Part shown: positions 1 to 63,167 of the stretch, piece by piece
Numbering within the stretch: position 1 is the first letter of the stretch
Layout of the letters: each line of letters starts with the position of its first letter
The notes under the pieces: generated by a model
Seen by the model: only the letters and a program-made list of their open reading frames with translations
What the model was told of the DNA's origin: nothing
The model's database searches: none
Made by a program: the position numbers and the translations under genes
Assembly (NCBI GenBank): GCA_046759165.1
Contig: JBHIBS010000001.1
Span: 4,002 to 68,001, forward strand
DNA length: 64,000 nt
Source of the DNA: a bacterium
GTDB taxonomy: Bacteria; UBA6262; WVXT01
Reading direction: 5' to 3'

Positions 1-204
1 TTAGAATCTTTAGCCAAAAATCTAAGAAAAGATCTCATTACGAAGCAATCTCGAGATTGCCACGCTCCCCTCAGTAGCTCGCAATGTCAGGCGCTATTCG
101 AAGAGCAAAAAATTCTCTGCGAGCGAGCCAAATCCCGAGCATATTTTCCTCAGCGATGAAGACAATATCTTTTAATTCTCATCCCGATCTTTAATGGGGA
201 TGTT

Positions 205-3356: not shown

Positions 3357-4310
3357 CTACGCAATGCCTAAATTCTGAAGGTAGCCTCGGGAACTGATGA
3401 CATCTTCTCTCAATGAGATGTCATGAGGTTCCAGTACTTTGATGGTGTGATGGTTCAAATAGGAACTAACGATTTCAAAGTTTATCTCGCCGTTTCCAGG
3501 ACTGTGATGGTCGGAAAAGCCAATTATATCATGGAGATGAATTCCCAGCAATTTGTCAGAATACTCCTTCAAAAAACTTTCATCTGAGTCTACTAAACCC
3601 AGCTTCTGGGCAACCCGAGCGTGGCCGGTATCGTGCCAATAATAAACATTCTTACCTGGAAAATGTTCCAAGATTAATCTTATCTCTTCAAAACTCGGAA
3701 TTTCATGATGGAAAAATCTATTCTCCATGCCGAGTTTTATATTGAATCTCTCTGAATAATTACTAATTTCCTCTAAGCTCTTTAGTGTATTTGAAAAGTA
3801 CACAGCCTTTTCCTTCTCCCGTCGATTGAGTACCTCCGATATCAATTTTTTACACAGACCTCTCTTTCCCTGAGCACAATAGTTAAAAATCTCTTTTGCT
3901 CGGCTTTCTATTGCTACCTCTCCTGCATGAATAACCACTGCCTCTGCATTCAAAAGATGAGCGAAATCAATGGTTCTCTTGGTAAGCTCAACTGCCTTCT
4001 TCCTCTCTTCACCATCACACGAAGAGAGGAGATAAGCACCCATAAGGGACCGACCTGATGGGACTTTAGTGAGTTTGGGGCAAAAATTATGTAAGGACAC
4101 AATTTTAATTTTTCCTTTTTTGTAAAGAACTAATATTTCATCGAGCATTTGTTCAGTCACCTCGACATTCAATTCTATTGCCGAAAATCCCATGTCTATA
4201 ATTTCTTCAACTAAGCTTTTCCCGTTCTGATATCTTTTTACATTCCAGGCAGTAGATAGAGCCAACAATGTTCTTCCCTCCAAATAATTCAGACAAAAGA
4301 CTTTAGACAC
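3357..4310 (-). CDS. Sugar phosphate isomerase/epimerase (xylose isomerase-like TIM barrel) family protein
   Basis: About 317 aa with HD/HxH metal-ligand-like motifs (WHDTGHA, HLHD); family assignment by recognition only. Confidence 0.5.
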   Translation of the reverse strand: MSKVFCLNYLEGRTLLALSTAWNVKRYQNGKSLVEEIIDMGFSAIELNVEVTEQMLDEILVLYKKGKIKIVSLHNFCPKLTKVPSGRSLMGAYLLSSCDGEERKKAVELTKRTIDFAHLLNAEAVVIHAGEVAIESRAKEIFNYCAQGKRGLCKKLISEVLNRREKEKAVYFSNTLKSLEEISNYSERFNIKLGMENRFFHHEIPSFEEIRLILEHFPGKNVYYWHDTGHARVAQKLGLVDSDESFLKEYSDKLLGIHLHDIIGFSDHHSPGNGEINFEIVSSYLNHHTIKVLEPHDISLREDVISSRGYLQNLGIA

Positions 4311-4364
4311 GTCGCAAGATTCAGACTGATCTTTCGAACTAAAGAACTAAGCGGCCCATGTAGG

Positions 4365-6398
4365 TCATCTTCCTTCCTCCTTTGCCCTTTGGTAAGCTTC
4401 AATCAGAGGCTGACTAACATTTGCTGGTGCTTCTTCATAATTGGAAAATTTCATTTTATGTTCTCCACTTCCCTTGGTCAATGAGCGGAGGTCTGTAGCA
4501 TAATTGAAAAGTTCTCCCTGCGGAACCAATGCTTTTATCACCTGTTTCTTGCCCTCACGGTTCATGCCCAAAACTCTCCCCCGTCGGGTATTTAGATCTC
4601 CCATTACACTGCCCATGAACTGCTCAGGAACAATCGCTTCCACTTCCATAATCGGCTCTAAAATAAAAGGCTGTGCCTGCTCCACCCCTCTGCGCAGTGC
4701 CATGCTACCAGCGATCTCGAAGGCTAAATTAGAAGAGTCGACTTCGTGGAAACTACCATCGTAAAGAGTCACTTTGATATCCACTACAGGATAGCCAGCA
4801 ATTACTCCCCTTTCCATGGATTGTTTAATTCCCTTCTCCACAGCGGGAATATATTGACTGGGAATTGCACCGCCAAAAATCTTATTAACAAATTCAAATC
4901 CTCTACCTTTTTCCAAAGGTTCGGTTTTAATCCAGCAATCGCCATACTGACCACGGCCTCCGGACTGTCTCTTATATTTTCCCTGAACCTTAGCAGCACC
5001 GCGAATGGTCTCCTTATAGGCAATCTTAGGTCTTCTCAATTCTACCTCCGCGCCATATCTCGTCTTGACTCTTCTCGACATAATTTCTAACTGGAGACTG
5101 CCCATTCCAGATAAAATCATTTCTTTCGTTTCTTTATTTATCTCATACTTAAGAGTAGGATCTTCACGGATGGCTGTAGATAAGGCATTGGCTATCTTCT
5201 CTTCTTCACCTTTCGATTTGGGATAGATAGCCATGTTTACGACTGGTTCCGGAAAGCTTATCTCGGGGATGGAGATCCTATTTTTTGGGTCACAGAGCAC
5301 ATCGTTCGTCCTGGTCTCCTTCAGCTTAACAACCGCGATGATCTCCCCTACCTCTCCTTCCTTCGTGTCAATACGCGTTTTTCCGCGCACAAAGGCAATT
5401 TGACCCAATCTTTCAGAGGAACCTTTGGTGTTATTAAAGACGTCCAACCCAGATGATATTTTACCTGAATATATCTTTAAGTAGTTTATTATCCCCAGAT
5501 GAGGCTCAGAAAAAGTCTTAAACACCAATGCTGAAAACGGCCCATTTGGATCAATCCTAACCTTTCTCTCTATTTCAATAGGCGAAGGTGCATACTCTAC
5601 CAGAAAGTCTAAAAGTTGACCGATGCCAATATTTCGCAACCCGGAACCACAAAGAACAGGCACGATTTTGTGCTCAATAATTCCTTTCTTGAGAGCTTCC
5701 CTCGTCTCTTCAGCGCTCAATTCTTGACCTTCCAGATACTTCTCAATCAGCGTGTCTTCTGAAGAAGCGATTACCTCGACCAATTTTTCTCTATATTCTT
5801 TAGCTTTTGCTGCCATTTCTTCGGGTATTTCCACCTCTTTTCCTTCAACTATGGCCTTGTTAATAATCAGATTAATTACTCCGGAAAACTCGTTACCGGA
5901 ACCGATCGGAATAGAGATCGGCGCAATATTGGGAGTTAATTTCTCTTTCAAACTTTCCATTACTCTATCGAAATTGACATTCTCCTTATCCATGCGGTTA
6001 ATGAAGATTATAGGTGGTTTTTTACTTTTCTGAACATATTCCCAGCTCTTTTCAGTCCCCATCTCTACACCATTAGCAGCACAAATGTTAACAATGGAAG
6101 TTTCCACAACGTAAAGAGCTCCCATCACTTCACCAACAAAATCGGCATACCCGGGAGTATCGATGATGTTAATTTTTTTATCTTTCCATTCGCAGAAGGC
6201 GATCGACGAATTGATGGAAATCTTCCTCTCAATCTCATCCGGGTTGTAATCGCAGACGGTATTGCCAGACTCTACTTTCCCTAACCTATCTATAGCCTTC
6301 GCTGAAAATAAAATTGCCTCGGCCAATTGGGTTTTTCCTGTTGACCCACTACCCACTATAGAGATATTTCTTAGATCTTCCACTTTATACTTCTTCAT
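4365..6398 (-). CDS. Elongation factor G paralog (EF-G-like translational GTPase, degenerate G motifs)
   Basis: 677 aa with EF-G domain order. P-loop GSGSTGKT is intact, but G3 reads DTPGYADF (catalytic His replaced by Tyr) and G4 reads NRMD. Not in an str-operon context. Confidence 0.8.
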   Translation of the reverse strand: MKKYKVEDLRNISIVGSGSTGKTQLAEAILFSAKAIDRLGKVESGNTVCDYNPDEIERKISINSSIAFCEWKDKKINIIDTPGYADFVGEVMGALYVVETSIVNICAANGVEMGTEKSWEYVQKSKKPPIIFINRMDKENVNFDRVMESLKEKLTPNIAPISIPIGSGNEFSGVINLIINKAIVEGKEVEIPEEMAAKAKEYREKLVEVIASSEDTLIEKYLEGQELSAEETREALKKGIIEHKIVPVLCGSGLRNIGIGQLLDFLVEYAPSPIEIERKVRIDPNGPFSALVFKTFSEPHLGIINYLKIYSGKISSGLDVFNNTKGSSERLGQIAFVRGKTRIDTKEGEVGEIIAVVKLKETRTNDVLCDPKNRISIPEISFPEPVVNMAIYPKSKGEEEKIANALSTAIREDPTLKYEINKETKEMILSGMGSLQLEIMSRRVKTRYGAEVELRRPKIAYKETIRGAAKVQGKYKRQSGGRGQYGDCWIKTEPLEKGRGFEFVNKIFGGAIPSQYIPAVEKGIKQSMERGVIAGYPVVDIKVTLYDGSFHEVDSSNLAFEIAGSMALRRGVEQAQPFILEPIMEVEAIVPEQFMGSVMGDLNTRRGRVLGMNREGKKQVIKALVPQGELFNYATDLRSLTKGSGEHKMKFSNYEEAPANVSQPLIEAYQRAKEEGR

Positions 6399-7333: not shown

Positions 7334-7452
7334 CCCTGGCGATGTCCTACTCTTCCATACCGTTACCAGTACAGTACCATCAGCGCTGGAGGCCTTAACT
7401 TCTGTGTTCGGGATGGGAACAGGTGTTTCACCTCCGCCATAATCGCCAGGGG
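7334..7452 (-). rRNA. rrf: 5S ribosomal RNA
   Basis: Reverse complement reads CCCTGGCGATTATGGCGGAGGTGAAACACCTGTTCCCATCCCGAACACAGAAG...GGAAGAGTAGGACATCGCCAGGG, a canonical 5S. Confidence 0.9.
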
Positions 7453-7479
7453 AAAACGTTTAATAAAATCAAATAGTAT

Positions 7480-10565
<3,086 letters not shown>

Positions 10566-10719
10566 TACTACTTAATTTTACTCGACGATATATTGAATCC
10601 ACCTGCATAATAGCAGGGTACCCTTTATTTGTCAAAGAGCAAATAAATATAAGAAACAAAATGTAAGTGAAAAATTCTCCCCACTTACACCCTATATCTT
10701 TCTACTTGTCTTTTTTATC

Positions 10720-10795
10720 TGGTGGAGAATACCGGACTTGAACCGGTGACCTCCTCGGTGCAAGCGAGGCGCTCTCCCAACTGAGCTAATTCCCC
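10720..10795 (-). tRNA. tRNA-Ala (anticodon UGC), CCA encoded
   Basis: Reverse complement GGGGAATTAGCTCAGTTGGGAGAGCGCCTCGCTTGCACCGAGGAGGTCACCGGTTCAAGTCCGGTATTCTCCACCA. Confidence 0.93.
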
Positions 10796-10891
10796 ATGTA
10801 GATGCGCAGAATATTTCTTAACTTATAAACTGGGCCAGACCCACAAAAAAGGCAGATGAAGGAAACGAGTTCTCACTTACCCCTGCCTCTT

Positions 10892-10968
10892 TGGTGGGCC
10901 TTTCTGGGTTCGAACCAGAGACCTCTACCTTATCAGGATAGCGCTCTAACCAACTGAGCTAAAGGCCC
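10892..10968 (-). tRNA. tRNA-Ile (anticodon GAU), CCA encoded
   Basis: Reverse complement GGGCCTTTAGCTCAGTTGGTTAGAGCGCTATCCTGATAAGGTAGAGGTCTCTGGTTCGAACCCAGAAAGGCCCACCA. Confidence 0.93.
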
Positions 10969-11090
10969 TTTCTGAATTGACCTAAGATTTATATAGTTAA
11001 TATAAACTTTTTCTTATATAACTGAGCCTTTTAGCCTCCTATTAACATTTATTAAAATTAAATAGGAGCTGAAGCCAAAAACCCTGAAAT

Positions 11091-12691
<1,601 letters not shown>

Positions 12692-12768
12692 GGAAATTTA
12701 CTCAACACCTTGAATTGACCAGGGTTATCTGGCTCCAATGCTCCTATTTTGATTTCAAAGAACTAACC

Positions 12769-25701: not shown

Positions 25702-25795
25702 AAGTAGGTCTCTCCGCCCTCGATTTAAAGGATAGTTTGTAGAGAGCTTTTCTAATTTTAGCCAAAAAACGGAGGTTGAAGCCTGGGGCTACGTA

Positions 25796-38990: not shown

Positions 38991-39115
38991 TTAGCCATTA
39001 AAATATGCACCCTGCACGATTTGAAATTGTACCTACAAATGTCACTGCCAGCGACCGAAAAGAGCGTGGTTCTGACTAGTCGAGACCTCACTTCGTTCGC
39101 AATGACAGTGCATAA

Positions 39116-52396: not shown

Positions 52397-52485
52397 AACA
52401 CCCCTCTGTGAACAAGAATCCTCGAAGTTATCCCCTTCGGGGGTTCACACCAAGATTCCTTTATAATGCAGATCTTCACTCTTCA

Positions 52486-52530
52486 GCTACATTCATTTAC
52501 GGGTTCGATGCATCGAACCCCTACATCCAC
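52486..52530. repeat. Intergenic repeat element copy A, containing a perfect 20-bp palindrome GGGTTCGATGCATCGAACCC
   Basis: CTACATTC-ATTTACGGGT-TCGATGCATCG-AACCCCTACA. Flanks are shared with copy B at 56236-56275. Confidence 0.6.
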
Positions 52531-52542
52531 TAGTTCCAGTTA

Positions 52543-53709
52543 CTATGTCTGTCTGGAAATATTGAGAAGTATTCCCACTCCCAGCAGCGAGAAGACCAGA
52601 GAAGACCCTCCATATGAGAGAAAAGGTAAGGTGATCCCTTTAGTTGGCAGACAAGCAGTAACTATACTGATATTTAAAACAGCCTGGAAGGTGATTAAAA
52701 AAGTAATTCCGGCAGCCAGTAAATTTCCGAATTGATTGGGTGCTCTTGTAGCTATACGTAGTCCCCTCCAGGCAACAAGAACGAATAGGAATACTATCAA
52801 GCTGGCACCCAAAAATCCGAGCTCTTCTCCAATTATCGGAAAAATAAAGTCCGAATAAGGCTCGGGTAGAAAGAACAATTTGGCCCTAGAAGCGCCCAAG
52901 CCTTTCCCAAAAAGACCTCCTGAGCCTAGAGCAAGAAGAGCCTGAACGGCCTGGTAGCCTATCCTCTGGGCATCAGCCCATGGATTGAGGAAGGTTAGAA
53001 TTCGCTCTCGGCGATATCCTACATGAAAAATTGCGAAATATAAAAGTGGTAGACTTAAGAGGACAAGCGAGAGAAGATGCGAAAGCCTAACTCCTCCCAT
53101 AAAGAGCATTACTAATATAACCAGTGCCAGGATAACAGCAGTCCCCAGATCTGGCTCGGCATAAACAAGTGTCAGAAACATTGCTGTTACTACTAGAATT
53201 GGCAAAAGCCCTTTTTTGAAATTCTGGAGTTTGCTTCCTTTCCGGTCTAAAGCATCCGCCACATAGAGAATCAAACAAAATTTTGCCATCTCGGAAGGTT
53301 GAAAGCTCACCATTCCAAACTTAAGCCAGCGCTTGATTTCTCCTGACTCTACTAGCAAAACTAAAAAGAGGAGGCCCAATGAGAAAACCATAAGCGGTCG
53401 GGAAAACTTCTGCAACTTGTTATAATCAACCCTTGCTAAAGCAAGCATTAAGAATGTGCCCATTACCGTCCAGATAAACTGCTTGGTTAGAAACAGATAA
53501 CTCGTGTCGAACTTTTTATGAGATACAATTGCGCTGGCACTGAAAACCATAACCACACCTGTGAAAACCAAGAATAGAACAACCAAGAGTAGAAGAATAT
53601 CGCAGCGATGATACTCTGGTGCATATAGGCCTTTCTTTCGCTTGTATCTCGGGCTTCTAAATCCTCTGACAAATCTTCTTTTTTGAGTTCTCAGATCTCT
53701 CTTACCCAT
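52543..53709 (-). CDS. ftsW: Peptidoglycan glycosyltransferase / lipid II flippase FtsW (SEDS family)
   Basis: Ten TM segments with conserved SEDS motifs; sits between murD and murG. Confidence 0.9.
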   Translation of the reverse strand: MGKRDLRTQKRRFVRGFRSPRYKRKKGLYAPEYHRCDILLLLVVLFLVFTGVVMVFSASAIVSHKKFDTSYLFLTKQFIWTVMGTFLMLALARVDYNKLQKFSRPLMVFSLGLLFLVLLVESGEIKRWLKFGMVSFQPSEMAKFCLILYVADALDRKGSKLQNFKKGLLPILVVTAMFLTLVYAEPDLGTAVILALVILVMLFMGGVRLSHLLSLVLLSLPLLYFAIFHVGYRRERILTFLNPWADAQRIGYQAVQALLALGSGGLFGKGLGASRAKLFFLPEPYSDFIFPIIGEELGFLGASLIVFLFVLVAWRGLRIATRAPNQFGNLLAAGITFLITFQAVLNISIVTACLPTKGITLPFLSYGGSSLVFSLLGVGILLNISRQT

Positions 53710-55109
53710 GTCTTGAAATCTTTTCCTCTTTCCTCAAAGTCGGAATACATATCGAAACTGGAACAGGCTGGAGAAAGGAGAATCGAGCTACCCGGCTGGC
53801 TTAAACCATAGGACAACTCTACTGCTTCCTTCATCCCATCTACCCTGTAAATGGTAGCCGAACCGATTAACTCCCTCTCTATTCTGGGAGCAGCTTGACC
53901 CAGCAAAACAAGGGCAGCGACTTTCTCTCTAACCAAATTCGTTAATGGTCTATAAGGCGCGCCTTTATCATAGCCTCCCATGATGAGTATAATCGGGGCC
54001 TGAAATGTTTCCAGCGCCCTCTGACAAGCATCAACATTTGTCGCCTTAGAATCGTTAATAAATCTCCTCCCATCGATTTCGCGAACCATTTCCAGACGAT
54101 GTTCTATTCCTGGGAACGCCTCAATTGCTCTTCTGAGCTTATTTCTCAATATACCAAATATATTTCCCACTGCAATGGCCGCCAGAGCATTCTCTAAATT
54201 ATGGGGACCAGGGAGCCTTACATCTTCAACTGAAAGTCCATCTCTATCAGAAGGAACTTTCGCCGTCGAGTCTAAATTGGAAATTATTCTCCCTCCCTTA
54301 ACAAAAACTCCTTTTCGCAAGGCTCTCTTACTACTGAAGAAAATAACTCGGGACTTCGCTTTCCGCCCTAGAATTCTACATCTCCTATCGTCTCCATTTA
54401 GAATACAGAAGTCCTTCTCTGTCTGTTTCTTAAGAATATTAGCCTTAGCCTGGGTGTACCTGCCCATTGTCTTGTGCCTATCCATGTGGTCAGGAGTTAT
54501 GTTCAAGATCACTGCCACATAGGGATGGAAAGACTTCACATTCTCTAACTGGAAACTGCTAATTTCGAGGACCAAAACAGTCCTCTTCGTAATCCGACCC
54601 ACCACACTGGATAGAGGCGTGCCAATATTGCCTGCAACCATTACGTTTCTTCTTCTGTCACTCTTTAACACTGCCCCAATTAACTCGCAAGTTGTGGTTT
54701 TTCCGTTGGTTCCTGTAACAGCCACGACAGGAGGAAATGGCAAAGTTTTCCAGTCGAGCTCACCACAGGCAATATTAAATGCCACCTCTACTTCACTCAC
54801 CACAGGGATTTTCAGCTCCCTTGCCTTCTCCACCAGGGGATTTTCCTGGGGGACGCCAGGACTTATGACTACCAAGTCGCATTCAGGAACTAAATTCTTT
54901 AGTCTGACTAAATCCTGGCGACCTGGAACAATCCTTACCCCTTTTTTAAGTTTTTTTATGTTACCTGTTAATTCCCTTTTACTCTTTTCATCGGTTACTG
55001 TCACTCTGGCGCCCCGAGTGGTCAATAGATTAGCTACCGCCAAGCCACTTCGGGCCAAACCTATAACTAATACTTTCCTCCCTTGGTAATAATTTTCTGT
55101 CAGTGTCAT
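53691..55109 (-). CDS. murD: UDP-N-acetylmuramoylalanine--D-glutamate ligase MurD
   Basis: Mur ligase GTNGKTTT; MurD-type N-terminal Rossmann domain (VLVIGLARSG). Confidence 0.92.
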   Translation of the reverse strand: MTLTENYYQGRKVLVIGLARSGLAVANLLTTRGARVTVTDEKSKRELTGNIKKLKKGVRIVPGRQDLVRLKNLVPECDLVVISPGVPQENPLVEKARELKIPVVSEVEVAFNIACGELDWKTLPFPPVVAVTGTNGKTTTCELIGAVLKSDRRRNVMVAGNIGTPLSSVVGRITKRTVLVLEISSFQLENVKSFHPYVAVILNITPDHMDRHKTMGRYTQAKANILKKQTEKDFCILNGDDRRCRILGRKAKSRVIFFSSKRALRKGVFVKGGRIISNLDSTAKVPSDRDGLSVEDVRLPGPHNLENALAAIAVGNIFGILRNKLRRAIEAFPGIEHRLEMVREIDGRRFINDSKATNVDACQRALETFQAPIILIMGGYDKGAPYRPLTNLVREKVAALVLLGQAAPRIERELIGSATIYRVDGMKEAVELSYGLSQPGSSILLSPACSSFDMYSDFEERGKDFKTWVREI

Positions 55110-56191
55110 CTAAGTTTTAACGCACTTAAAGCTATTAAGGCCAAAATAATCCCCACAATCCAGAACCTGATTACTACTTTTGGCTCGGACCAACCAATCA
55201 ATTCAAAGTGGTGATGCAAAGGTGCCATTTTCAAGACTCTCTTACCTCGGAGCTTAAAAGAAGCAACTTGCAGAATCACTGATAGCGCTTCGACCACAAA
55301 AATTCCTCCGACAATGACCAAGAGAAGTTCTTGTTTAATGATCAGGGCAACGATACCAATTGTTCCCCCTAAAAAGAGGGAACCAGTGTCACCCATGAAG
55401 ATCTCTGCTGGATAGCTGTTGAACCACAAGAATCCCAGACCCGCCCCTGCCATTGAACCCAGAAAGATGGAAAGCTCCCCAGCACCAGGAACCGGAACAA
55501 TGCGCAGATAACTGCTAAAATTAGCGTGGCCTGCCAAGTATGCCATCAAAGCATAGGTCATTGCAGCAATGAGGATTGAACCTACTGCCAACCCATCCAA
55601 ACCATCAGTTAAATTGACTGCATTGGAGGAACCAACCACGAGTAGAATAGCAAAAAGCGCGTAAAGCCACCCAAGATTAATGAAGAAATCTTTCAAGTAT
55701 GGTATATTGAGCTGGGTTACGTATCCGGGACTGACTGGATAGTGATAAAGATGAATTACAATAATTATAGCCAAAATTGATTGCCCGAAGAGTTTATACC
55801 TTGCTATAAGTCCCCGACTTCGCTTTTTTATCAATTTTAGATAGTCGTCAAGGAAACCCAATAGTCCCAACCAGAGAGTGGAGAGAAGAATAATTATGGT
55901 GAAGCGATTATCGAGACGAGCCCAGAGAAAGGTCGAAACAGTAAGGCTAATTAGAATGATTAATCCACCCATTGTGGGGGTTCCTGCTTTCTTCATATGG
56001 CTGGGCGGGCCATCTTCCCGTATCTGTTGACCTATATGCAATTGTTTCAATTTCTTTATTAACAGAGGTGCAAGGAATAAACTCAAAACCAAAGAGGTAA
56101 ATATAGCAGCCCCAGCACGAAAAGTTATGTATTTGAAAAGATTGAAAGGGAAGAAGTACACATGTAGAGGATATAAGAGATGATAGAACAT
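55106..56191 (-). CDS. mraY: Phospho-N-acetylmuramoyl-pentapeptide transferase MraY
   Basis: Ten-TM protein with NAVNLTDGLDGLA and PAEIFMGDTGS motifs. Confidence 0.93.
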   Translation of the reverse strand: MFYHLLYPLHVYFFPFNLFKYITFRAGAAIFTSLVLSLFLAPLLIKKLKQLHIGQQIREDGPPSHMKKAGTPTMGGLIILISLTVSTFLWARLDNRFTIIILLSTLWLGLLGFLDDYLKLIKKRSRGLIARYKLFGQSILAIIIVIHLYHYPVSPGYVTQLNIPYLKDFFINLGWLYALFAILLVVGSSNAVNLTDGLDGLAVGSILIAAMTYALMAYLAGHANFSSYLRIVPVPGAGELSIFLGSMAGAGLGFLWFNSYPAEIFMGDTGSLFLGGTIGIVALIIKQELLLVIVGGIFVVEALSVILQVASFKLRGKRVLKMAPLHHHFELIGWSEPKVVIRFWIVGIILALIALSALKLR

Positions 56192-56216
56192 TTACTCTCC
56201 AGATAACGACCTCAAA

Positions 56217-56318
56217 GCAGACTTTCGCTCTGCCACTACATACATTTACGGGTGCAATCAATCCAACCCCTACAGGAAGTATGTAGTTTCTTAGCAGAGT
56301 TTTGCTCTGCCGCTACAT
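56217..56318. repeat. MITE-like repeat element copy B with 8-bp terminal inverted repeats, flanked by a 25-bp imperfect direct duplication of the murF 3' end
   Basis: DR1 gcagactttcgctctgccactacat (56217-56241) and DR2 gcagagttttgctctgccgctacat (56294-56318, inside murF coding) share 22 of 25 nt. Between them, CTACATAC (56236-56243) ... GTATGTAG (56279-56286) bracket the core ATTTACGGGTGCAATCAATCCAACCCCTACA. Confidence 0.55.
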
Positions 56319-57715
56319 TCTTTCCTATAACAGCAAAGTGTAAGGTATTTCGTAACTTCCTCTAATCCCATCTTGCGAGACCCTTTAATCAGCACTGCAT
56401 CCTTTGCCTTCAGCAATTCCTTCAGTTTCCTAGAGGCAAATTTCTTATCCTTAAAAGAGAATATATTGCTCCTTTCCATTCCCCACTCACGAGCACCCCG
56501 AGCGATAAATCGGGCATCCTCTCCTATCGTGATTAAGCTATAGATTGGGCTGGTAGCCACTATCTTGCCAATCTCCTGATGAAATTTTCGACTCATCGTG
56601 CCCAATTCCAACATATCGCCCAAAACGACTATTTTCCGCTGGGAGGGAAAAGAGGAAATAAGTTCGCTTAATGCAGCTTTTACAGAAGTGGGATTAGCAT
56701 TATAAGCGTCGTTAATGATTGTGACCTTACCATATTTCAACTTTTCCATCCTCAGCTTGGGAAATTTGAATTCCCTAAGCACATCAGCCATCAAGGGAAG
56801 GGAGATGTCAAACTCTTTAGCAACGCTTATGGCAGCCAATGCATTATAAATGTTGTAACGTCCTAAACAGTATAAATCAAATTCCTTTCTATCTCTCCCC
56901 ACGTGGACGGTGAAAGAAAGTTTTTCCTTCCCCCAGGACCTACTTCCCACAACATCACTCGCCCGCACATCAGCCTGCCGGTTTGTTCCAAAAGTAATTA
57001 TTTCCCGTTTTATCCTTTTAAACTGGTTCCTCAAATGGAAATCATCAATATTTAACACGACTTTCCCTTGCGGAGGCAGAAGTTGAACAAGTTCCATTTT
57101 ACCAGAAAGCACATTAGAAATGCAACGGAAAAATTGGAGGTGGGTGGGACCGATGTTGGTAATTACCCCAATTTGTGGTAGGGAAATCTCCGCCAATCTC
57201 TTAATCTCCCCGGCGTGGTTGGCTCCCATTTCCACAACCAGAAACTCCGCCTCAGGAAAAATCCCGAAAAGGGTCAAGGGAAGACCAACTATATTGTTGT
57301 AGTTACCAGTAGTGGCTATCACTTTATACTTCGATAAGAGGAGCGCCTTCAACATATCCTTCGTTGTCGTCTTACCATTGCTGCCAGTTACTCCCACAAC
57401 CACAGGATTGAACTTCTGACGATAAAACTTGGCCAATTCTTGCAGGGCAGTCAAGGTATGGGCTACTCTTATAATCGCTATTCTAGTAGCCAGTCTTTTC
57501 TTCCTAGAAACAACCACCGCCTTTGCACCCTTTTCTATCGCCTCCTCGAGAAAATCGTGGCCATCGAACCTTTCTCCTTTCAGCGCAAAGAAGATTTCTC
57601 CCTTCTTTATAGTGCGACTGTCAATGGAGACACCTGAAATTTCTCCTCGCTGACTTCCACAAATTAATTCACCCCGGACGGCTCTTATTACCTCCCTTAT
57701 AGTAAGTCTTTCCAT
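56291..57715 (-). CDS. murF: UDP-N-acetylmuramoyl-tripeptide--D-alanyl-D-alanine ligase MurF
   Basis: Mur ligase GSNGKTTT; MurF domain order. Confidence 0.92.
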   Translation of the reverse strand: MERLTIREVIRAVRGELICGSQRGEISGVSIDSRTIKKGEIFFALKGERFDGHDFLEEAIEKGAKAVVVSRKKRLATRIAIIRVAHTLTALQELAKFYRQKFNPVVVGVTGSNGKTTTKDMLKALLLSKYKVIATTGNYNNIVGLPLTLFGIFPEAEFLVVEMGANHAGEIKRLAEISLPQIGVITNIGPTHLQFFRCISNVLSGKMELVQLLPPQGKVVLNIDDFHLRNQFKRIKREIITFGTNRQADVRASDVVGSRSWGKEKLSFTVHVGRDRKEFDLYCLGRYNIYNALAAISVAKEFDISLPLMADVLREFKFPKLRMEKLKYGKVTIINDAYNANPTSVKAALSELISSFPSQRKIVVLGDMLELGTMSRKFHQEIGKIVATSPIYSLITIGEDARFIARGAREWGMERSNIFSFKDKKFASRKLKELLKAKDAVLIKGSRKMGLEEVTKYLTLCCYRKECSGRAKLC

Positions 57716-57716
57716 A

Positions 57717-59234
57717 CTATTCCTTGTTAAATTTCATTTCTTCCAAAAGAATCTTCCTGGCAACTTCACGGTCATCGAAGTGAACTCTTCTGTCCTTAAA
57801 GATCTGGTAGTCCTCATGTCCTTTCCCGGCAATTACGACCAAATCGCCCTTTTCCCCCATGGACAATGCCTTCTCGATCGCTTGAAACCTATCGATGATA
57901 GTCTGATAATTACTCTTCCCTTTCCTCTTTATTCCTACTTCAATGTCGAGAGCTATCCGCTCAGGATCTTCACTCCGGGGATTATCCGACGTGACAATGA
58001 CATAATCACTAAGATCAATGGCTACCTCACCCATCAGAGGTCTCTTCCCCCGATCCCGATCACCCCCGCAACCAAAAACAGTAATGATTCGCCTGGGCTT
58101 TAACTCCCCGCAGGCGTCCAAAAGCCTCCTCAAAGCTTCATCGGTATGAGCATAATCGACTATCACTGCAAATGGCTGCCCACAATCAATTCTCTGGAAC
58201 CTTCCAGGAATGGAAGAGACTTTTTCCAATCCACGCTTAATAATGCCCAAACTTATGCCTTGACCTAGGGCAATAGTACTTGCAGCTAAAGCGTTATATA
58301 CATTATATTTTCCAGTTAGAGGTAAAACAATCTTCACTTCCCCTGTTGGGGACACGAGAGTAAAGGTAGTCTTATCCAGATTCAATTTTATGCTCTTTGC
58401 TACAACCTCGGCCTTCTTTTCAATACCATAGGTGATTATCTTTGCCTCTGTCGATTGGATAATTTTCTCTGTTGAGGAGTCGTCTAGATTCAAAACCGCT
58501 AGTTTCTCCCTTTCTTTCCGAGCATTCTTTCCCAGAATGGAGAACAGTTTAATCTTTGCTCTCAAATACTCCTCCATACTCTTATGAAAATCGAGATGTT
58601 CGCGACTCAAGTTAGTAAATAGAGCACTATCGAACTCACATCCTTCCACTCTATCTAAACTCAAGGCATGGGAAGAGACTTCTATAACTACTGTAGTGAA
58701 TTCTTCATTTACCAACTTTCGCAGTATTTGCTGCAGGTCGGAGGATTGGGGAGTGGTAATCGGGGCAGGGAATATTTTCTCTCCAAGTCGATAAGCAATC
58801 GTACCCAGGACTCCCACTTTTGCTCCATTCTCTTTGAAGATGGCCTCGGTGAGATAACTGACTGTCGTTTTACCGTTGGTACCAGTTATCCCGATTATGT
58901 TTAATTTATCGGAAGGATAATTATAGAAGAAGGTGGCAAACTTTGCCAGAGCTAAGCGGGGATTCTCGACCACAATTTGAGTAGCGGAGCCTCCCCACCT
59001 GGAGGGTTTTGCCAATCCTTCTATTCTTTTAGAAGAAACAATTACTGAAGCCCCTGCTTCCAGAGCCTGTGGGATATAAGAATTCCCATCCTCTCTATAA
59101 CCAGAAATAGCCACAAAGATGTAGCCTGGTTTAACTTGGCGGGAATCGTAGGTTATCCCTTCTATAGAAAGTTCTGCTGAGCCGTGTACTTCTTTAGCAC
59201 CTATCGGCGGTAATAGGTCGTTTAGCCGGACCAT
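57717..59234 (-). CDS. murE: UDP-N-acetylmuramoyl-L-alanyl-D-glutamate--2,6-diaminopimelate ligase MurE
   Basis: GTNGKTT; DNPR motif consistent with meso-DAP-type MurE; stop abuts the murF start. Confidence 0.92.
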   Translation of the reverse strand: MVRLNDLLPPIGAKEVHGSAELSIEGITYDSRQVKPGYIFVAISGYREDGNSYIPQALEAGASVIVSSKRIEGLAKPSRWGGSATQIVVENPRLALAKFATFFYNYPSDKLNIIGITGTNGKTTVSYLTEAIFKENGAKVGVLGTIAYRLGEKIFPAPITTPQSSDLQQILRKLVNEEFTTVVIEVSSHALSLDRVEGCEFDSALFTNLSREHLDFHKSMEEYLRAKIKLFSILGKNARKEREKLAVLNLDDSSTEKIIQSTEAKIITYGIEKKAEVVAKSIKLNLDKTTFTLVSPTGEVKIVLPLTGKYNVYNALAASTIALGQGISLGIIKRGLEKVSSIPGRFQRIDCGQPFAVIVDYAHTDEALRRLLDACGELKPRRIITVFGCGGDRDRGKRPLMGEVAIDLSDYVIVTSDNPRSEDPERIALDIEVGIKRKGKSNYQTIIDRFQAIEKALSMGEKGDLVVIAGKGHEDYQIFKDRRVHFDDREVARKILLEEMKFNKE

Positions 59235-62804: not shown

Positions 62805-63093
62805 GCAAAAAATCAAAAAAAATCGAATTTGCCCCAGGATAAAATAAATACATAGACGGAAACTGAAGTGCCAGAGCCGCCGCGGACGGACGACCTTCAC
62901 GGTCGCCCAACCCACTCTGCTTTATCATCATGTCATAGCGAGCGACTGAAAGGAGGGTGACAATCCGACCCGAATCGGTCATTGCGAGGGTGAAGCCCGT
63001 GGTCCAGATGAATGGGGACTTCCCTTTGCCTTTCATTTCATTCAGCGACAAGGTCGCAATGACAGCGCCTTACCCTACAAAAAGGGAGTGTGG

Positions 63094-63113
63094 GGGTTCG
63101 ATTCATCGAACCC
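63094..63113. repeat. Third copy of the near-palindrome GGGTTCGATTCATCGAACCC (one mismatch from the perfect palindrome at 52501-52520)
   Basis: Direct sequence comparison; it lacks the ATTTACGG/AACCCCTACA flanks of copies A and B. Confidence 0.5.
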
Positions 63114-63167
63114 GCCGACCAAAGATGGCACCATAAACGGTGCCCGACCAGGGATGGTCTTATCAAA

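Follow-up and report, generated by a model that had tools for sequence, protein, structure and literature searches.

The murF-mraY spacer of the window (the whole stretch of 64,000 nucleotides analysed here) is very probably a small cluster of GTAG-tagged REPs of the REP/BIME-like kind, composed of three units (B1, A and B2) and the empty tag of a further palindrome, X. One known process would thus explain why 99 nt separate two genes of a cell-division operon that is compact elsewhere. In two sources a REP is defined as a GTAG head followed by a palindrome, with GTAG serving as a guide (PMC3733652; PMC8266576). The spacer corresponded to this on the minus strand, where three GTAG-headed palindromes were arranged head to tail in the same orientation, each palindrome starting 0-2 nt after its GTAG. 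The layout on the gene strand was gaATGTAG-C-GGCAGAG-caaaa-CTCTGC-TAA-gaaa-CTAC-atacttcc-TGTAG-GGGTTGGATTGATTGCACCC-GTAAATGT, continued by ATGTAG-T-GGCAGAG-cgaaag-TCTGC-tttgaggtcgttatctGGAGAGtaaATG. Scanning the sequence for perfect hairpins headed by GTAG revealed B1, B2 and an intact palindrome at 52524 (minus strand), of which A is a decayed form. Against the cluster reading, the copy number visible in 64 kb of the host genome is low, and tblastn identified no RAYT gene in the window.

Every gene in the murE/murF/mraY/murD/ftsW part of the window was located on the minus strand (Table 1), and the gene identities were backed by Pfam domains on the identical Logan contig L001. The segment carrying the mraY RBS was the only part of the spacer kept in most relatives. 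A blastn search against plasmids gave no match. A complete rRNA operon (16S, two spacer tRNAs, 23S and 5S) was found at 7334-12694 on the minus strand, which also carries almost every gene of the window.

Table 1. Genes, palindromic units and associated features of the window and of related or repeat-bearing contigs
Feature	Sequence	Position	Strand	Remarks
murF	Window	56291-57715	minus	474 aa; stop codon 56291-56293
mraY	Window	55106-56191	minus	361 aa
murE	Window	57717-59234	minus	
murD	Window	53691-55109	minus	
ftsW	Window	52543-53709	minus	
murF-mraY spacer	Window	56192-56290		99 nt
mraY RBS, GGAGAG	Window	56195-56200	minus	within TTATCTGGAGAGTAAATG
REP unit B1	Window	56294-56318	minus	ATGTAG-C-GGCAGAG-CAAAA-CTCTGC; intact 6-bp hairpin
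REP unit A	Window	56250-56273	minus	GTAG-GGGTTGGATTGATTGCACCC; decayed copy of GTAG-GGGTTCGAT(T/G)CATCGAACCC; core of the preliminary description
REP unit B2	Window	56217-56241	minus	ATGTAG-T-GGCAGAG-CGAAAG-TCTGC; 5-bp stem
Empty tag of palindrome X	Window	56283-56286	plus	GTAG (CTAC on gene strand); no palindrome behind; part of the left terminal inverted repeat of the preliminary description
C-type REP remnant, 3' half	Window	56326-56338	minus	type C: GCAAAGC-TTTC-GCTTTGC-TGCTAC; now murF codons ..LCCY..
Paralogous 61-nt A+B unit	Window	52465-52525	minus	ftsW-murG spacer; 79% identical to 56214-56274
Third hairpin A	Window	63089-63114	plus	GTGG-GGGTTCGATTCATCGAACCC; upstream of mraZ; -9.4 kcal/mol, z -4.9
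Second repeat family	Window	1-90	plus	partial
Second repeat family	Window	about 39037-39108	minus	
Second repeat family	Window	about 62935-63060	minus	
Second repeat family	L004	3290-3370		nested within other repeats
Second repeat family	L122	murF-mraY and murE-murF spacers		nested within other repeats
RAYT ORF	L204	4337-4801		NF047646 101.8 bits; B-type REPs at 4305-4328 and 4898-4921
RAYT-like ORF	L158	804-1235		NF047646 69.6 bits; Y1_Tnp 42 bits; B-type REPs on both sides; REPs at 679, 714 and 1248

The three units differed in preservation. B1 formed the last eight murF codons (..ECSGRAKLC), with the TAA stop directly 3' of its stem, and folded as single-stranded DNA at -6.0 kcal/mol (z -3.1). 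B2, which is the canonical GCAGAGC-GAAA-GCTCTGC minus one base, had a weakened DNA fold (-3.4 kcal/mol, z -1.8), and the A copy of the spacer gave -2.1 kcal/mol (z -0.9).

The observations from which a preliminary description had derived a MITE could be reproduced. The 25 nt that close the murF coding sequence have a second copy 77 nt downstream (start to start) with 22 of 25 positions identical (56217-56241 and 56294-56318), a perfect 8-bp inverted repeat is formed by CTACATAC (56236-56243) and GTATGTAG (56279-56286), and a core lies between its arms (56244-56274). The direct repeat extends to 31 nt at 84% identity (56216-46 and 56293-323), and a degenerate 25-mer fitting both copies matched only these two sites in 64 kb, with 0 matches in 100 shuffles. 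No further copy of the 25-mer or of the 31-nt core was found in the 64-kb window. Three points were absent from that description, namely that each 25-mer is a GTAG plus a hairpin, that the core is a decayed GTAG-headed palindrome, and that the true unit is 61 nt long.

In this 61-nt unit the linker GTAAATG(A/T)AT joins GTAG-hairpin A to GTAG-hairpin B. In its paralogue in the ftsW-murG spacer, GTAG-GGGTTCGATGCATCGAACCC is intact and GTAAATGAAT is the linker, whereas B (GTAGCTGAAGAGTGAAGATCTGC) has decayed; hairpin A of this copy (52501-52524, minus strand, just downstream of ftsW) folded at -8.3 kcal/mol (z -4.1), and no hairpin was left on folding its B copy. The core of the murF-mraY spacer matched the intact ftsW-murG palindrome at about 75%. 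A pattern match for A returned three copies in the window, in the murF-mraY spacer, at 52501-52524 and at 63090-63113. In total, three A and three B units were visible in the 64 kb, all of them in the dcw region; the remaining 50 kb had no copy. All of these copies occupied spacers between same-strand genes, with B1 overlapping the 3' end of murF.

Other repeats were also observed. A second family, palindromic and about 70-120 nt long (GTCATTGCGA...CGAAGCAATCTCGAGATTGCCACGCTCC...TCGCAATGAC), was present in several intergenic gaps. The gap at 25702-25795 (minus strand) carried a dispersed repeat, TTTTTTGGCTAAAATT..GCTCT.TACAAACTATC.TTTAAAT, which recurs in the murE-murF spacers of the related contigs L003 and L128. 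Just upstream of murG (52405-52445, minus strand), a hairpin CCCC-GAAG-GGGG was followed by GATAACTTC and the pairing GGATTCTTGTTCAC. This hairpin was kept in the window, L002 and L124, with the rest of the ftsW-murG spacer varying, and may be a real leader element.

The murF-mraY junction was compared among relatives using L002, L003, L004, L122-L128 and L190 (the L003 contig ends 68 nt past the murF stop). The junction differed between them, with a spacer of 92-304 nt in the nine complete junctions, and every lineage looked different. A common scaffold, B1-TAAGAAA-[X body]-CTAC-ATATTYCTGTAG-[A body]-(G)TARATGWATGTAG-B2-RBS, could be recognized in the window, L002, L122, L123, L124 and L190. 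Clean indels of 20-21 nt between relatives coincided with palindrome bodies, exactly 3' of GTAG; they were resolved by pairwise alignment with cheap gap extension, MAFFT having forced X against A and hidden them. The X body (20-21 nt, GGGCTCAATAAATTGAGCCC type, e.g. TAGGCTCGATAAATTAAGCCC) was present in L122, L123, L124 and L190, and the window and L002 showed its clean loss or absence. The A body (21 nt) existed at this junction in the window, L002 and L190 and was absent from L122-L124, and L190 carried both X and the A core, inverted and with the tags inward. In the ftsW-murG spacer the A body was found only in the window and L002, being absent in L123-L126 and L190. L004 and L126 had none of these hairpins.

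On a rough neighbour-joining tree (MurF+MraY+MurD), the lineages sharing the scaffold fell in different clades, so several independent gains or precise losses of the bodies are needed. The A body in both dcw spacers may reflect two insertions or gene conversion between them, the latter being a possible shortcut, and hairpin-promoted replication slippage could remove palindromes. Spacer sequence and length were fully replaced within about 15% protein divergence. REP turnover of this kind would explain why related metagenome assemblies have variable spacers and broken contigs.

L190 (5130-5370) and L128 (6460-6663), whose MurF+MraY+MurD proteins are only 4% apart, have B1 and the last ~40 nt of the spacer in common, and the REP content between these two parts differs wholly. 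An element with the ends GAGGCTGTGTCG and CGACACAGCCTC, carrying further nested repeats, was found in the loop of a B-type REP (L122, 6734-7037) and in that of a C-type REP (L128, 6460-6663), and REP loops seem to be insertion targets. The murE-murF junction is empty in the window (57716, 1 nt) and holds palindromic inserts in relatives, with lengths of 18 nt in L126, 140 in L123, 145 in L124, 169 in L122, 225 in L004, 321 in L003, 359 in L125 and 373 in L128. The inserts of L004, L124 and L128 are bounded by direct repeats GATAGTT(A/T)TCGG.., the first copy of which overlaps the murE stop.

About 30 close homologues of MurF (75-98% identical) were identified. Apart from the 98% homologue, they stop 0-8 residues after ..KYL, or in one case (P0013) after 16 unrelated residues. 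No relative at or below 89% identity has the tail TLCCYRKECSGRAKLC, which is therefore lineage-specific. The B1 unit also occupies the murF end in L122, L123, L128 and L190, and in L122, L123, L124, L128 and L190 an ATGTAG or TTGTAG head supplies the TAG with which murF stops. In a long-gap alignment with L122, 169 nt are missing from the window; the gap opens directly behind ..KYL and closes halfway through a C-type REP, where the window resumes inside GCTTTGCTGCTAC. With this gap, murF reads through the REP remnant CTTTGCTGTTATA and B1 to the TAA after the B1 stem. The frame was present in three independent assemblies (window, L001 and L002) and is therefore not a sequencing error. Judged from the alignment, the 16 C-terminal residues of MurF are REP-derived: a deletion would have removed the original stop, which is the TAG of the GTAG head in relatives, and readthrough to the TAA would have followed. 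REPs would in this way also account for the odd 16-residue tail on an essential enzyme.

The A and B families were found far outside this locus. The A pattern GGGTTCGATNCATCGAACCC was detected in at least 117 genome stretches by an exact-pattern scan of GTDB (one genome per species), where about 2 would be expected by chance according to our own estimate (596 Gb, 19 fixed bases). Among the matches listed, the MAGs carrying A were labelled Omnitrophota, Atribacterota, Clostridia, Zixibacteria, Auribacterota, WOR-3, Desantisbacteria, Schekmanbacteria, Thermodesulfobacteriota, Chloroflexota, Gammaproteobacteria and others, and several had many copies, with one Omnitrophota MAG accounting for 22 stretches on at least 15 contigs. 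GTAG was located directly 5' of A in 104 of the 122 copies listed (85%), and 51 of the 122 had an inverted second, different GTAG-hairpin within 60 nt. Beside perfect hairpins of 7 bp or more in the A loci among these matches, the commonest 4-mer was GTAG (249, against 42 for the next). In the partner hairpins the frame GTAG-GGG-NNNNN-loop-NNNNN-CCC was constant; the stems differed and yet were fully complementary. Literature searches gave only chance primer matches for the exact palindromes, and none was found for REPs in Omnitrophota.

It was also observed that the 20-nt REP body GGGTTCGATTCATCGAACCC together with GTAG is identical in MAGs under at least 12 phylum labels (L005-L121), two long-read Gammaproteobacteria assemblies included. 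Such identity across phyla is unusual, REPs being described as lineage-specific.

The B type (GTAG-Y-K-GCAGAGC-loop-GCTCTGC) was also recognized at unrelated positions in L003, L037 (where A is its partner), L049, L062, L012 and L025. A pattern scan of JGI metagenomes for canonical B yielded at least 140 copies in at least 120 stretches, and the densest locus among the matches listed was L170, with 6 copies in 8.7 kb. The repeat of the window extends to ATGTAG, because the metagenome B copies are usually preceded by AAT or ATT.

A link to the enzyme was provided by clustering the ORFs of all fetched loci, from which a family with matches to Pfam Y1_Tnp (cut-off 23 bits) and NCBIfam NF047646 (REP-associated tyrosine transposase, cut-off 80 bits) emerged. 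B-type REPs flank two of its members, in L204 and L158 (Table 1). In L158, ATGTAG-CT-GCAGAGC-loop-GCTCTGC-TAAAAAG is paired with an inverted C-type unit, GGCAAAGC-loop-GCTTTGC-NG-CTAC, and the murF-mraY spacers of L122 and L124 show the same combination of B and inverted C. Further RAYT-like ORFs, in L043, L059, L069, L107 and L243, likewise have GTAG hairpins of their own nearby.

From these data we infer that a RAYT/TnpA(REP)-type enzyme would have seeded the units and would still be causing their gain and loss. It would act on single-stranded DNA hairpins with GTAG as guide, as is described for the REPtrons of E. coli, Stenotrophomonas and Marinomonas. The units would then have been reshaped by deletions, perhaps also by gene conversion involving both dcw spacers, and are presumably transcribed within the dcw operon mRNA.

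It is improbable that the spacer is instead a selected regulatory RNA structure of the dcw mRNA (attenuator, processing site or stabiliser) whose repeats make up one conserved fold. The 166-nt region does fold better than shuffles (-51.2 kcal/mol, z -3.2) and a spacer exists at the junction in every relative seen, but the spacer turns over completely within about 15% protein divergence, L004 and L126 do not have the hairpins, and the motifs also turn up in many phyla in contexts unrelated to this one. Where the window and L002 differ by substitution, pairs are broken and not compensated, and A and B2 have decayed, so that even with the B1 hairpin at the murF stop kept in 7 of the 8 lineages having B1, most of the spacer is probably neutral. 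No terminator- or promoter-like site was predicted in the murF-mraY spacer, and the covariance models of Rfam 15 (gathering score and E ≤ 10) gave only two chance-level matches (E 1.8 and 7.6), far below gathering.

With two of its three hairpins decayed, a present-day function of the whole REP cluster is doubtful, and A and B2 are decaying and probably neutral. B1, the only hairpin in good condition, is the best candidate for a role and could be a 3' stability barrier for the murF mRNA or influence how translation terminates. Liang, Rudd & Deutscher (Mol Cell 2015) reportedly dealt with REPs near stop codons and tmRNA. Roles of REPs as mRNA 3' barriers and in translation termination are known (review, PMC8266576).

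A purely local origin, in which the 3' end of murF was duplicated by slippage or in tandem and then diverged with no mobile-element enzyme, is very unlikely. The similarity covers only 25-31 nt of the 77-nt period, the GTAG-tagged unit also occurs 3.7 kb away, at other loci and in other organisms, and it flanks RAYT genes; these facts outweigh the small tandem duplications that do exist in neighbouring spacers of relatives (CTTTAAGGTGTTAAGAGGA twice in L003; GATAGTT(A/T)TCGGAGTCGCTCGG twice in L004, L124 and L128, in full at the murE-murF junctions of L004 and L128). Local duplication may have acted as a secondary process.

Scarcely any credence can be given to the reading of the preliminary description, a MITE of about 50 bp with 8-bp terminal inverted repeats that was inserted at the murF end and duplicated a 25-bp target. 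The direct and inverted repeats on which it was built are real and the junction is polymorphic among relatives, but both B1 and B2 are present in L122-L124, where the core is missing and the X palindrome is found instead; the supposed target-site duplication is thus two copies of one REP type. This 25-mer is itself dispersed (L003, L037, L049, L062 and the metagenome stretches above). Each inverted-repeat arm turned out to be a tag plus 4 flanking nt, the tag being the orphan CTAC of X in one arm and the GTAG that heads B2 in the other, and the 51-nt unit that the arms bound has no second copy in the window, the recurring unit having other boundaries. The murF implied before insertion would have no stop codon for more than 150 nt. 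Transposases make target-site duplications of 2-14 bp, and to our knowledge no transposase family is known to make one of 25 bp. Of the mobile-repeat reading it is the short, non-coding, multi-copy and apparently mobile repeats that stand, and the architecture of a MITE with its duplicated target that falls.

A mini-CRISPR of two repeats and one spacer was rejected, as the repeats are only 84-88% alike and the units are single, dispersed and GTAG-tagged, and so was an integron attC or other recombination site, no R'/R'' GTTRRRY cores being visible.

For the GTAG-tagged REPs favoured here, a more far-reaching proposal can be made only tentatively and is rather unlikely as a whole. The dcw spacers would be a series of filled and empty sites, in which a 20-21-nt body without its GTAG is inserted or lost exactly 3' of a GTAG that stays in place, and the identical bodies would mean that REPtrons spread across phyla. 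If this is true, GTAG would be the target or cleavage site in vivo, much as TTAC is for IS608, and the series would be direct genomic evidence for how REPs move, a mechanism that was called unresolved in the 2021 literature (PMC8266576). Horizontal spread of REPtrons across phyla would also go against the prevailing view of vertical, lineage-specific REP-RAYT co-evolution. The near-isogenic spacers, with single palindromes present or absent beside GTAG, are usable for testing models of REP mobility.

Among known systems, bacterial MITEs (RUP, NEMIS/Correia, ERIC) are likewise short, non-coding, multi-copy, intergenic and co-transcribed with their neighbours. According to PMC3733652 they measure 70-300 bp and have 15-30-bp terminal inverted repeats and short target-site duplications; none of this was found here, where the inverted repeat is 8 bp and the unit bounded by it 51 bp. 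The IS200/IS605 elements (IS608, ISDra2) resemble the present system in the HUH/Y1 enzyme and the tetranucleotide 5' of a hairpin, and bodies present or absent exactly 3' of GTAG recall the insertion of IS608 3' of TTAC (PMC8266576). Unlike them, the units described here are 20-25 nt long, with no two distinct ends, no cargo and no tnpB.

REPINs, like BIMEs, consist of two inverted REPs with a short linker, and B1, A and B2 all have the same orientation. REPIN-RAYT systems are reportedly the subject of Bertels & Rainey 2011. A resembles them in that elsewhere it usually forms an inverted doublet: another GTAG hairpin lies 5-10 nt from it and the tags point outward, an arrangement that would fold into one long hairpin. 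Unlike REPINs, the cluster of the window is not a doublet, and the X-A pair of L190 has its tags inward.

The cluster belongs to a known type of element, the REP, and is no new kind of element. It differs from usual REPs in its head-to-tail order in place of inverted pairs, an arrangement that PMC3733652 calls rare, in the low visible copy number and in two decayed units, and its host is of an uncultivated lineage and not a proteobacterium. The stems GGGTTCGAT-CATCGAACCC and GCAGAGC-GAAA-GCTCTGC were absent from the searchable text of PMC3733652, which covers 24 families. REP families from uncultivated lineages, with recognisable REPtrons (L158, L204), are added. The likeness to the GTAG REPs and BIMEs of E. 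coli, Pseudomonas and Stenotrophomonas (SMAG), as given by Di Nocera et al. 2013 (PMC3733652) and Corneloup et al. 2021 (PMC8266576), is seen in palindromes of ~20-25 nt directly after GTAG, in several stem variants sharing one tag and in the clustering of different REP types. The units lie between same-direction genes and are close to the 3' end of the upstream ORF or overlap it; uni-directional REPs are placed near that end by PMC3733652. As in GTAG REPs, for which heads supplying TAG stop codons are common (PMC3733652), the GTAG head gives the TAG stop of murF in relatives, and the B type flanks RAYT genes in other contigs.
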